This document shows positions 43,971 to 47,123 of a stretch of 51,434 bases of DNA, piece by piece; position 1 is the first letter of the stretch; every line of letters starts with the position of its first letter. A program made the position numbers and the translations under genes. This DNA comes from Candidatus Methanospirareceae archaeon (GTDB lineage: Archaea > Halobacteriota > Syntropharchaeia > Alkanophagales > Methanospirareceae). The notes below the pieces were generated by a model. That model did no database searches, had not been told where the DNA came from, and worked only from the letters and a program-made list of their open reading frames with translations. Location of the stretch: positions 17,133-68,566 of the forward strand of contig JBNGDK010000003.1 in the NCBI GenBank assembly GCA_049975405.1, written 5' to 3'.

Positions 43971-44834
43971 TTAGCTCAGGATCTGCAGAAGATCGCGATC
44001 GAGGAGCATTCCGATCAATTTTCCACGGGCTGAGATCACCGGTAGCTGATCGAACCGACCCTCAGTCATCTTCTTCGCGCATGCGCTCACGCCATGATTG
44101 CGCGTCGCGGTTACCACATCCCGCACCATCACTGCCTTGACCAGCTTCTTCGGCATTCGTATCCGTGAAACGCTGTAGTACAGCGTCATATGATCTCGCA
44201 TCCCGTCCAATGACCACTCGCTCTCATCAGAACCCAGCGAGAGGTCAGAACGATCCACATGGTCCTCGATCATCGCCGCTGAGATCAAATCCTGATCGGT
44301 GATGAGCCCCACGATAGCCAGCTCGGCATTGAGGACCGGCACCGCTTTTACCTTCGCCAGCTCCATGATCCGACCGGCGACGTTCAGCGGCATCTCATCC
44401 CAGAGTGCGAGCGTCTTATCCCTTAGGAGCCCGGCAATGGGTGTCCTGTTGTCCCACGTTGCGATCGCCTTGATGAAATCCGCGACTGTAACGAGCCCGA
44501 TGAGCTTGTGCCCCTCGACCACGGGTAAGCGGCGGATGCGGCGATCCCGTATCACTTTCGCCGCGTCAGCAAGGCTGGTCTCTGGAGTGATAACCAACGG
44601 ATCGCGTGTCATCAGCAGGGCTACTTGCTCTTCATTGGGCTTCCGGAGCAGATCCTGGCGCGTAACGACGCCAACCACCTTGCTGTCTTTAACAACCGGA
44701 ACACCCGAGACAAATTTCTCCTTGAAGAGCTCCAACACATCTTCGCGCGTTCCCGGAACTGTCACGTACGCGACATCCTTTACCATGATATCGCGAACAG
44801 TCAATCGTCCACGTTCGTTCTGATTCGTGTTCAT
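43971..44834 (-). CDS. Four-CBS-domain protein
   Basis: VRDIM, SGVPVV, RRLPVV, AVPVL, QLPV repeats. Confidence 0.9.
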   Translation of the reverse strand: MNTNQNERGRLTVRDIMVKDVAYVTVPGTREDVLELFKEKFVSGVPVVKDSKVVGVVTRQDLLRKPNEEQVALLMTRDPLVITPETSLADAAKVIRDRRIRRLPVVEGHKLIGLVTVADFIKAIATWDNRTPIAGLLRDKTLALWDEMPLNVAGRIMELAKVKAVPVLNAELAIVGLITDQDLISAAMIEDHVDRSDLSLGSDESEWSLDGMRDHMTLYYSVSRIRMPKKLVKAVMVRDVVTATRNHGVSACAKKMTEGRFDQLPVISARGKLIGMLLDRDLLQILS

Positions 44835-45088
44835 TCCAAGCGATAAACCATATCGTGAGGTCGGACCTTCCCGGGCACCTTCAACCCAACTGCTTCGCCT
44901 GCGGTTGCCGTCTCCACCTTCTTGTTCTCGATCTCCATCGAATCAACCACCTGTTCAACTGCGGTCGTGGCGCCTTCAATCAGTATCCGATCTCCGACCG
45001 AGATACGATCGCTCAGCTCGACCACCGCAACGCCAATGCGCGAGAAGTAATGCGTTATCTTTCCTACGAGCTTCTTCTCGTCCATCAC
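44831..45088 (-). CDS. Small EF-Tu domain-II-like / U32 C-terminal-like beta-barrel protein
   Basis: VGKITHYFSRIGVAVVEL...VGDRI.IEG.TT...Q.V.SMEI...V..A..G..VGLKV...VR..D.VY. Confidence 0.8.
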   Translation of the reverse strand: MMDEKKLVGKITHYFSRIGVAVVELSDRISVGDRILIEGATTAVEQVVDSMEIENKKVETATAGEAVGLKVPGKVRPHDMVYRLE

Positions 45089-45110: not shown

Positions 45111-45488
45111 CTATATTAACTTGTATTTTCCCTCGTAAAGTAAAAAGGGTACCTCTTTGCCTGGTTCGATCCGGTCCATCAGCTCTTCCGCGACCTGTAT
45201 CTCAATCGTGGAGAAGTCTTCCAGATCCATGATCTGTACCGTAGAGCCCATAACAGCAAGCACCTGGCCGCTTTTTCGCTCAATAATCGGCACGTAGATC
45301 TTCGCCGTCACCGGCTGGACCGCAGTCCGTTTTTGCGAGTCGAAGACACCGATGGCCTCCATTCTCGCCTTTGCCGCGCCATGCTTCCCCGGCTTCGAGG
45401 TTGTTATGCTCATGATCGTACAGGGCTCATCATCGATAATGACATACTTCCCTTCCTTCAACATCCGTACCTCGGTCAATTCCTTCAT
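45111..45488 (-). CDS. eif5a: Translation factor aIF5A
   Basis: Hypusine loop SKPGKHGAAKAR; GKYVIIDDEPC; VQIMDLE; GGAGG SD upstream. Confidence 0.95.
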   Translation of the reverse strand: MKELTEVRMLKEGKYVIIDDEPCTIMSITTSKPGKHGAAKARMEAIGVFDSQKRTAVQPVTAKIYVPIIERKSGQVLAVMGSTVQIMDLEDFSTIEIQVAEELMDRIEPGKEVPFLLYEGKYKLI

Positions 45489-45754: not shown

Positions 45755-45771
45755 AAAAAGCAAAGAAAGTA
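45755..45771 (-). terminator. T-rich tract after the bS22-like gene
   Basis: Minus strand reads TACTTTCTTTGCTTTTT about 32 nt past the stop codon. Confidence 0.4.
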
Positions 45772-45803: not shown

Positions 45804-45890
45804 TTATTTCTTATACCGCATCTTCTTCCGTCGCTTCTTCAACTTATGTTTCCGCATCTTTTGTATCTTTCGTTTCTTACCGCAGGGAAT
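45804..45890 (-). CDS. 28-aa basic bS22/mS38 (COX24/AURKAIP1)-like ribosomal microprotein with apparent ATT start
   Basis: Manual translation (ATT)PCGKKRKIQKMRKHKLKKRRKKMRYKK*; SD GGTGA 6 nt upstream; in-frame TGA three codons upstream excludes an earlier start. Confidence 0.72.
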   Translation of the reverse strand: MPCGKKRKIQKMRKHKLKKRRKKMRYKK

Positions 45891-45914
45891 TTCTCCTCAC
45901 CACCTTTCGTATCT

Positions 45915-45957
45915 TTTATGCTTTGTATAGTTAGCTTATTTAGATAAGAAGCATAAA
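45915..45957. promoter_or_regulatory. Nested inverted repeats in the divergent promoter
   Basis: TTTATGCTT (45915-45923) / AAGCATAAA (45949-45957) enclosing CTTAT-TTAG-ATAAG (45935-45948). Confidence 0.45.
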
Positions 45958-45983: not shown

Positions 45984-47123
45984 ATGGGCAGGATAGAGCG
46001 GCCACCTAGTTGGATTTTGAAGTATAAAGAGGGGATAGAGGCTGGCACGATTACTGTTGAACAGATCCTTGAGGAGGAGAACAAGCTTCGAAAAACACCT
46101 ATTAAAGTATCCTCGGTCACGAGGGCGATCAATGCCCTGGGGCTTCCGATTACGGGCTTGCGAAGGCGAACGCAAGGCCAAGCGAACAGTAGCGATGCTG
46201 CCGCGGAAACGGACGATGAGCTGAGTGCAGTCGAAAAGCCTCCCGCATGGATACAGAAGTACCGTGATCGAATCGAGAAGGGCACACTTACCGCTGAGCA
46301 AATTCTCGAAGAAGAGAACGAGCGGCGGACTGTGCCGATCAAGATAACGACGGTGAAACGGGTAATGAATGCTATGGCACGTACAGTTGAAGGAATGCAG
46401 AACGAAGAGCGCGATGAATTAGAAGTGGCGAATGAGACCTCTGAACGAGGAGATACCTCCACAGCGGGACAGAAGGGCCCTGGTTGGCTCCAGAAGTACC
46501 GTGACCGGATAGAGGCCGGTACGATTACGGTCGATGAGATACTCGCCGAGGAGAACAAAAGCCGTGAGACCCCGATCAAACGTTCTTCAGTAACACGGGC
46601 GATCAATGCTCTGGGTTACCAGACGGGTCAGCTGCAACGGAAGGCAGCGAAAGAGGCAGTAGCGAGCACGGAGGAGCACCGCGAAGAGCAGAGCACCAAA
46701 GCAGCGAGCGAAGAGAAAGGACCGGGCTGGCTCCAGAAGTACCGTGACCGAATAGAAGCCGGGACGATTACGGTCGATGAGATACTCGCCGAGGAGAATA
46801 AAAGCCGCGAGACTCCGATCAAACGCTCCTCGGTGACACGGGCGATCAATGCTATGGGCTTCACCATCGCGGGCATGCGCCGTGGGAAGCGAGAAGCGGC
46901 GAAGGTTGCGGAAGAGCCGGTGAAAAAAGCGGCGAAAGCGGAAGCATTCGTTTATAGCTCCAGCCTGGGGAAGCTCTCGGAGCCGACGCTCAAGCGATTC
47001 ACTGAGGTGAAAAAGAGCTGGGAAGAGGACTTAGGGAAACCGTTGCAGAACGACTATTTCCTCAATATGCTTCTTGCGTTGGCCAGGCTCGCCGAGCGCG
47101 GGAAGACGCTTACGTCACGGTAG
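45984..47123 (+). CDS. Uncharacterised protein with four tandem ~48-aa HTH-like repeats and an RHH-like C-terminus
   Basis: ATG 45984 after AAGGAG; repeat consensus P.W..KY...IE.GT.T...IL.EEN..R..PIK...V.R..NA. Confidence 0.85.
   Translation: MGRIERPPSWILKYKEGIEAGTITVEQILEEENKLRKTPIKVSSVTRAINALGLPITGLRRRTQGQANSSDAAAETDDELSAVEKPPAWIQKYRDRIEKGTLTAEQILEEENERRTVPIKITTVKRVMNAMARTVEGMQNEERDELEVANETSERGDTSTAGQKGPGWLQKYRDRIEAGTITVDEILAEENKSRETPIKRSSVTRAINALGYQTGQLQRKAAKEAVASTEEHREEQSTKAASEEKGPGWLQKYRDRIEAGTITVDEILAEENKSRETPIKRSSVTRAINAMGFTIAGMRRGKREAAKVAEEPVKKAAKAEAFVYSSSLGKLSEPTLKRFTEVKKSWEEDLGKPLQNDYFLNMLLALARLAERGKTLTSR
45999..46859 (+). repeat. Four intragenic 144-nt repeat units
   Basis: Units at 45999-46142, 46236-46379, 46473-46616 and 46716-46859; spacing 237, 237 and 243 nt. 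Confidence 0.9.

Follow-up and report, generated by a model that had tools for sequence, protein, structure and literature searches.

To our knowledge, descriptions of the ribosomal protein bS22 are limited to bacteria (Actinobacteria, Bacteroidota and Borrelia), with mS38 as its counterpart in mitochondria. Archaea have been considered to hold eL41/eS32 in the corresponding pocket, or to have no identified occupant there. The bS22 pocket is made up of h2, h27, h44 and h45, and the contact with the large subunit involves H68 or H70, as described in PMC10618245 and PMC12123416. In eukaryotes and Pyrococcus this pocket is filled by eL41/eS32, and in mitoribosomes by mS38 (PMC10618245, PMC12123416, PMC7005279). 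The Thermococcales also have eL41/eS32 there. Chain V of the 8FMW structure is the Borrelia bS22 (PMC10618245), while 9I5V and 7JIL are Porphyromonas and Flavobacterium ribosomes which contain bS22 (PMC12123416). In the Bacteroidota structures, the protein is located between h44 and h45, in contact with the large subunit (PMC12123416). The Borrelia gene had not been annotated previously; it has a GUG start and its product contains 61% Lys+Arg (PMC10618245). The eL41 protein of Pyrococcus is 37 aa long and differs in its N-terminal extension, and in Pyrococcus abyssi its N-terminal part touches modified bases which line the P site (PMC7005279). Lomakin et al. have proposed uS22 as a common name for bS22 and eL41 (PMC10085706). 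Both the idea of uniting these proteins and an unannotated bS22 gene with a GUG start (PMC10618245) were, accordingly, already in the literature.

The window we have analyzed is a stretch of 51,434 nucleotides from a genome of 2.05 Mb in 119 contigs, with a completeness of 99.8% according to marker genes. Its family, which we call f1, corresponds to ANME-1/Methanophagales, anaerobic methane oxidisers, as indicated by named contigs with near-identical copies (17 loci). Table 1 lists the features of a small open reading frame found on the minus strand, together with those of its surroundings. The comparisons given below make it quite probable that this locus is a real, translated gene of an ANME-1 archaeon, coding for a 28-residue small-subunit microprotein of the bS22 family and started by AUU.

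Table 1. Features of the bS22-like locus and of the neighboring aIF5A gene (positions in the window).
Feature	Position	Strand	Basis
A/T-rich box ATAAAAG, candidate TATA element	45913..45919	-	By eye
SD AGGTGGTGA, includes in-frame TGA (45899-45897)	45897..45905	-	8/9 positions match the 3' end of the genome's own 16S rRNA
Spacer GGAGAA, 6 nt, non-coding	45891..45896	-	Drift of sequence and length in relatives
ATT, proposed initiation codon	45888..45890	-	Comparative: 60/60 f1 genomes
CDS, 28 codons + TAA	45804..45890, TAA 45806-45804	-	Sequence read directly, dN/dS, bS22 matches in PDB
T5 tract, putative archaeal oligo-T terminator	45755..45759	-	By eye, ~45 nt past the stop codon
aIF5A, 125 aa + stop	45111..45488	-	Pfam IF5A-like_N, E 3.4e-16; 316 nt downstream of the micro-ORF

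The codons of this frame are ATT CCC TGC GGT AAG AAA CGA AAG ... AAG AAA TAA. With AUU as initiator the product is MPCGKKRKIQKMRKHKLKKRRKKMRYKK, with 17 Lys or Arg among its 28 residues (61%); the frame from stop to stop is GEIPCGKKRKIQKMRKHKLKKRRKKMRYKK. A reading of the sequence alone (the sequence-only reading) had proposed this minus-strand frame, its coordinates and an in-frame TGA before it, and all of them are borne out by direct reading. The same applies to its claim that no earlier start is available: neither ATG, GTG nor TTG is found from the TGA to an internal ATG at codon 12. Upstream of the TGA, the next in-frame stop is a TAA 13 codons further, with no canonical start between them (codons read by eye). 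The A/T-rich box is possibly a TATA element, and boxes of the ATAAAAG type recur in relatives, 8–18 nt upstream of the SD (by eye). The T5 tract possibly corresponds to an oligo-T terminator. No Rfam RNA family matched in the window. A gene transcribed divergently from the micro-ORF (45984-47120, plus strand) codes for a 379-aa protein with four repeats of about 75 aa, whose consensus is PPxW(I/L)xKY(K/R)..IE.GT(I/L)T.(E/D)(Q/E)IL.EEN...TPIK.SSVTRAINA.G. All Pfam matches of this repeat protein are sub-threshold (DUF7418, GntR-type winged helix).

The peptide was compared with all PDB chains, and three matches were found at E<=10. The best one is the bS22 of Borrelia burgdorferi (8fmw_V, E 6.7e-4), in which residues 1–28 align with residues 1–28 and 16 of the 28 are identical. 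The other two are the bS22 proteins of Porphyromonas gingivalis (9i5v_10, E 0.03) and Flavobacterium johnsoniae (7jil_5, E 0.21). A profile made from 30 archaeal sequences matches the same three chains with E values of 1.9e-8, 3.7e-7 and 1.3e-6, respectively, and a mitochondrial mS38 fragment weakly (E 0.34). The values obtained for this fragment (8a22_BC) in the different PDB searches with archaeal profiles range from 0.16 to 6.5. Beyond the three bS22 chains and mS38, the 30-sequence profile finds nothing at E<=10 among 177,635 distinct PDB sequences. The mycobacterial-type bS22 chains present in PDB gave no match at E<=10, and no eL41/eS32 chain was found at this level in any of four PDB searches, with the single peptide or with profiles. 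In the bS22 matches, the ATT codon is aligned with Met1 of the bS22 chains.

The closest described protein is the Borrelia bS22 (gene bb0822, 8FMW chain V). Both have 28 residues and align without gaps, with Pro-Cys-Gly at positions 2–4, His15 and about 61% Lys+Arg; both genes were missed by annotation and have a start other than AUG. They differ in the host, a spirochaete in one case, and in the start codon, GUG in Borrelia. In addition, binding to the ribosome was seen by cryo-EM for the Borrelia protein, whereas we infer it from homology for the archaeal peptide. The Bacteroidota proteins (7JIL chain 5 and 9I5V) share the length class, 30 aa, and the MP-x-GKKRK...HK.KKR pattern, but they have Ser or Asn at position 3, where the archaeal peptide has Cys, and their hosts are bacteria. 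The resemblance to mS38/AURKAIP1/Cox24 is weak and in register with its C-terminal basic helix. In this case the protein is much longer and the homologous part is C-terminal.

The Pfam model COX24_C (PF08213) is the sole Pfam match of any weight on the peptide. The match is in register (positions 5–27 of the 33 in the model), with 9.3 bits and an E value of 1.4, below the gathering cut-off of 23 bits. The sequence-only reading had suggested a search with this profile (DUF1713) as a check, and the curated threshold was not reached. When the model was applied to 30 homologues, 20 of them had matches at E<=10, the best E value being 0.012, and all were under the 23-bit cut-off. A search of the whole host genome with PF08213 gave no match at E<=10, and NCBIfam scans found no matching model. 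As a control, PF08213 was run on 14 named genomes. It was over its cut-off in one of them, and it had no match in Bacteroides thetaiotaomicron, which presumably carries a bS22 of the Bacteroidota type, given that this protein is seen in solved ribosome structures of the related Porphyromonas and Flavobacterium. In view of this control, the failure of the model on the archaeal peptide is weak evidence against membership.

A composition with 61% Lys/Arg invites compositional false positives. An alternative explanation is a peptide which, although conserved and translated, is not ribosomal, for example a nucleic-acid-binding or antimicrobial-like polycation, and whose likeness to bS22 is due to compositional convergence. 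Its small size, its extreme basicity and its sub-threshold Pfam match would fit this view; convergence among bS22, mS38 and eL41 has been considered by the authors of PMC12123416. Nevertheless, we regard this explanation as unlikely. The alignment runs collinearly from one end to the other between proteins of equal length, it includes landmarks which are not basic (Pro2, Cys3, Gly4 and His15), and the 177,635 PDB sequences, which contain many other basic peptides, yielded only bS22 and mS38. The linkage of the gene to aIF5A, described below, is also against it. The size and composition of the peptide agree with those of bS22 (28 residues and 61% Lys+Arg, compared with ~28–33 residues and ~60%). 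The assignment to bS22/mS38 made by the sequence-only reading is upheld by these searches, in which nothing was matched in PDB except mS38 and bS22 chains verified by structures, in end-to-end alignments. We conclude from this sequence evidence that the peptide most probably belongs to the bS22 family, with a sequence of the Spirochaete/Bacteroidota type, and that it falls below the formal limit of the Pfam family.

The distribution of the ORF was examined with a profile search of the class (79 genomes), in which full length was defined as model positions 1–28 with E <= 2e-12. We found a full-length ORF in 60 out of 66 f1 genomes, that of the window among them, as well as in the two genomes of its sister family, f2. 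Completeness is 51–85% in the six f1 genomes which lack a full-length ORF. At locus L062 (G065:C130), in an f1 genome otherwise without the gene, ATA CCC TGC GGA ATA AAG AGG TAA (IPCGIKR*) follows a GGTGA motif; this stretch may be a degraded copy or a chance occurrence.

The ORF is a real gene, and the purifying selection on its protein sequence is strong. In 45 unique copies of 84 nt, the variable sites at codon positions 1, 2 and 3 are 11, 9 and 26, respectively, with a mean pairwise dN of 0.034 compared with a mean dS of 1.0. Its conservation is far above chance expectation. Codons 2–11, which lie between the ATT and the internal ATG, have a dN of 0.068 and a dS of 0.81 when taken alone, and therefore appear to be translated. 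These values bear on the possibility that initiation takes place at the internal AUG, giving a 17-residue peptide, with the conserved upstream part acting as an RNA element. No canonical start precedes the ATG at codon 12 in this frame, and all 45 unique copies have this ATG. On the other hand, this ATG has no SD, synonymous changes are found upstream of it in codons for Pro, Cys, Gly, Lys and Arg, with the dN and dS values given for codons 2–11, and homologues started by ATG or GTG share the N-terminal residues, which align with the N-terminus of bS22. Initiation at the internal AUG is thus highly improbable.

As to initiation at the ATT, an AUU codon usually supports initiation very poorly, and such a codon sits oddly with a protein which is required once per ribosome. 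We have examined one locus in each of the 60 f1 genomes, and the first codon is ATT in all of them. In 57 of the 60, no in-frame ATG, GTG or TTG is found between the preceding stop and the ATT. A stop codon comes immediately before the ATT in 8 genomes, and in 47 it is separated from it by two codons only. The remaining three genomes have an in-frame GTG within or adjoining the SD, and a canonical start is a possibility there. The isoleucine codon at position 9 is ATA in 19 copies and ATC in one, never ATT, which means that the invariant ATT at codon 1 does not reflect an ordinary codon preference. In 11 of the 60 f1 genomes, the stop codon of the bS22-like gene itself is TGA, which argues against TGA recoding. 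The initiator tRNA of the genome has a normal CAU anticodon.

The ATT might, in principle, be due to an assembly error or to a private loss of the start codon in a dead gene, although nothing beyond prior expectation speaks for this. This is refuted by the ATT present in 60 of 60 independent assemblies and by a dN/dS of ~0.03, which leave the idea with a practically negligible probability. The comparison supports the ATT as the initiator of the bS22-like gene in f1: it stands at the start position, it is preceded by an SD, and no alternative start exists in 57 of the 60 genomes. The sequence-only reading had noted that the ATT lies where the bS22 family has its Met, and the related genomes agree with it. 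The ATT is constant within f1 while the spacer before it drifts, and the codon aligned with it in homologues of other archaeal families is ATG or GTG.

The two copies of f2, a family of the same order (L024 and L025), have ATA as first codon, with a G-rich SD (AGGGG...) 8 nt upstream, and they may have an AUA start. This case is less clean because an in-frame GTG is found 3–4 codons upstream of the ATA, within the G-rich SD, so that a canonical start is possible.

The 3' end of the genome's own 16S rRNA is ...GGATCACCTCCTAA, and the SD listed in Table 1 is complementary to it. Sequences in front of the ORF were compared in 52 unique ORFs, which correspond to f1 and the two f2 copies. The SD 9-mer is AGGTGGTGA in 47 of them, and the variants found in relatives (AGGAGGTGA, GGAGGTGA, TGGAGGTGA and others) retain or improve the complementarity to the 16S 3' end. 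The spacers that follow GGTGA are much more variable: 17 distinct sequences are found, with sizes of 5–8 nt. Since changes in their length shift the frame, the spacer is non-coding, and it is incidental that the upstream TGA is in frame. In this genome, GGTGA peaks 4–10 nt before the first ATG of 1503 long ORFs, which makes the 6-nt spacing found here a typical one.

The strength of the SD may be compared for loci with different start codons. The predicted duplexes between SD and anti-SD have mean values of -12.8 kcal/mol for AUU loci (40 unique loci), -9.1 kcal/mol for AUG loci (n=16) and -9.9 kcal/mol for GUG loci (n=8); the two AUA loci have -11.7 and -16.0 kcal/mol. The AUU and AUA loci are predicted to have stronger duplexes than the AUG and GUG loci, in a comparison which is descriptive, as the lineages are not independent.

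Homologues are also found in other archaea, which goes beyond what the sequence-only reading had foreseen. Phylum-wide profile searches, with 251 and 401 genomes, detected homologues without gaps and with 28–29 residues in four further families: f4, f13, f18 and f20. Family f4 belongs to the same class as the window and has a homologue in 2 of 3 genomes; f13 has it in 2 of 5 and f20 in 1 of 4. In these three families the first codon is ATG. All seven f18 genomes contain the gene, which starts with GTG in six of them and with ATG in the other one. Several large families gave no homologue in the genomes searched: f7 (0/52), f9 (0/64), f11 (0/24) and f14 (0/25). The same result was obtained for the genomes searched in f17 (0/28), f15 (0/15) and f8 (0/14). 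In f18 (L092-L099), the bS22-like gene is found directly 3' of a gene whose product has a RadA/RadB-like C-terminus, as judged by eye (...KHRSRPEG..CEFV...DG...).

A second archaeal group, with small genomes (0.5–1.6 Mb) and related to a Candidatus Nanohaloarchaea contig, has the gene in 24 of 41 genomes. The first codon was read in 20 loci of this group: it is ATG in 10, GTG in 6 and ATT in 4. Taken together with those of the four families, the gap-free homologues started by ATG or GTG have 28–30 aa. No canonical in-frame start is found after the preceding stop in two of the four ATT loci. Judging from these sequences, the AUU start has arisen more than once. The loci associated with ATT are L106-L108 and L113, and in L107 and L108 the SD is followed by three ATT codons in a row. 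As to the nature of the hosts, eS28 is encoded in all ten carrier genomes tested, and among the 14 controls the eS28 model matches only the four archaeal genomes; the carriers are therefore archaea.

Six archaeal peptides, the one from the window with AUU read as Met and five copies started by ATG, were looked for in a collection of 15 billion proteins and none of them was present, as expected from the claim of the sequence-only reading that gene callers do not see the gene. We have found no report of an archaeal bS22 in the full-text literature, and no report of a conserved AUU start in archaea either. Within the reach of our searches, this would be the first strong comparative case of a conserved AUU initiation codon in archaea. 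A bS22-type peptide is encoded, without annotation, in ANME-1, in at least five other archaeal families and in the separate group with small genomes. This annotation blind spot, by which a ribosomal gene of 28 codons is missed, affects the inventories of ribosomal proteins obtained from metagenome-assembled genomes. The distribution of the peptide also bears on whether bS22, mS38 and eL41 are a single universal protein, and on the direction of acquisition.

The relationship to eL41/eS32 deserves separate consideration. The eL41/eS32 protein is a small, basic and helical peptide, like the bS22-like one, and it lies in the h27/h44/h45 pocket, where it forms bridge eB14 (PMC10085706). It has no detectable sequence likeness to the archaeal peptide. 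According to PMC3353972, eL41 is found in at most 53 of 87 archaeal genomes, and PMC7005279 and PMC9932298 describe it as missing from many archaeal genomes. The Pfam model Ribosomal_L41 (PF05162) has no match at E<=10 on the peptide and none at this level in the genome of the window. In 41 relatives its matches are all sub-threshold; they correspond to 12 loci, nine of which were translated, and all nine look like chance matches. The model did not reach its cut-off in any of the 14 control genomes, so a search with it says little. Listings of small basic ORFs and three short eL41-like motifs produced no eL41-like candidate in the host genome. A degenerate 15-nt pattern, derived from an eL41 motif of five residues, matched 36 times in 251 genomes of this phylum; no eL41-like ORF was seen in the 12 that were inspected. 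It is likely that eL41 is absent from the host genome, a negative limited by the failure of PF05162 in the controls and by the weakness of the other tests. The replacement of eL41/eS32 by the bS22-like peptide, which the sequence-only reading had suggested, is a possibility. If the phylum as a whole had no eL41, the majority of its members would have neither protein by these searches, and the term replacement would be too simple.

The way in which the gene might work can be outlined from its homology to bS22. A strong SD on the mRNA (AGGUGGUGA), 6 nt 5' of the AUU, would direct the ribosome to this codon. The AUU would be decoded by the ordinary CAU initiator tRNA, and the product would start with Met-Pro-Cys-Gly, with Met presumably at position 1. 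The peptide would then be placed in the 16S rRNA pocket of h27/h44/h45, beside the decoding centre and the P site, and it would contact the large subunit as an intersubunit bridge.

The weak start codon may have a regulatory meaning, and the sequence-only reading had suggested that the gene might be tuned by start-codon stringency. Bacterial infC is also initiated at AUU, and this start is part of the autoregulation of IF3. We know of no IF3 in archaea. The two cases have in common a conserved AUU start and a product which acts, or in the archaeal case would act, in the small subunit, at the P site or close to it. They differ in that the bacterial mechanism is based on IF3, which is not known from archaea, and a feedback in the archaeal case would be conjectural. 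By analogy with infC, weak starts might have been repeatedly selected in bS22 genes as the protein adjoins the P site, giving a feedback on start-codon stringency; we consider this a doubtful possibility. Small subunits without bS22 would be more permissive to near-cognate initiation, and more bS22 would be made. The AUU of all ANME-1, the AUA of f2, the AUU found again elsewhere and the GUG of other archaea and of Borrelia would all be instances of such weak starts. If this were true, a bacterial-type protein and not eL41/eS32 would fill the pocket in these lineages. In any case, AUG, GUG, AUU and AUA variants form a natural series in one gene, and the question of regulatory near-cognate starts in archaea becomes addressable by a reporter experiment.

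The position of the micro-ORF on the same strand as aIF5A and just upstream of it, as given in the sequence-only reading, was also found to be correct (45488-45114, without the stop codon, at a distance of 316 nt). This arrangement is found throughout f1, where aIF5A is always downstream and on the same strand. The gap between both genes is 12–47 nt in two genera and 100–320 nt in most others. It reaches ~560–890 nt in genus g10 and ~1180 nt where another gene intervenes. The linkage to a gene coding for a translation factor supports a role in translation.

A different explanation of the linkage is that the ORF is mainly a uORF or leader which controls aIF5A, so that translation itself matters and not the peptide. 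Its conserved strand, the 12–47 nt gaps of two genera and a weak start codon, typical of regulatory uORFs, would fit such a role. Against this, the sequence of the peptide is under strong purifying selection, the 316 nt gap of the window contains the T5 tract, and the distance is ~1180 nt in some loci. Furthermore, the bS22-like gene has no aIF5A nearby in f2, f4, f13, f18, f20 and the group with small genomes. A leader function is very unlikely for these reasons, and a gene for a bS22-type ribosomal peptide, linked to aIF5A in f1, is the explanation we favor. Two other genes of the minus strand are found downstream of aIF5A in the window. The first one (44834-45085) codes for an 84-aa beta-barrel-like protein, with sub-threshold matches to EF-Tu domain 2 and Peptidase_U32_C, and the second one (43974-44822) codes for a protein with four CBS domains.
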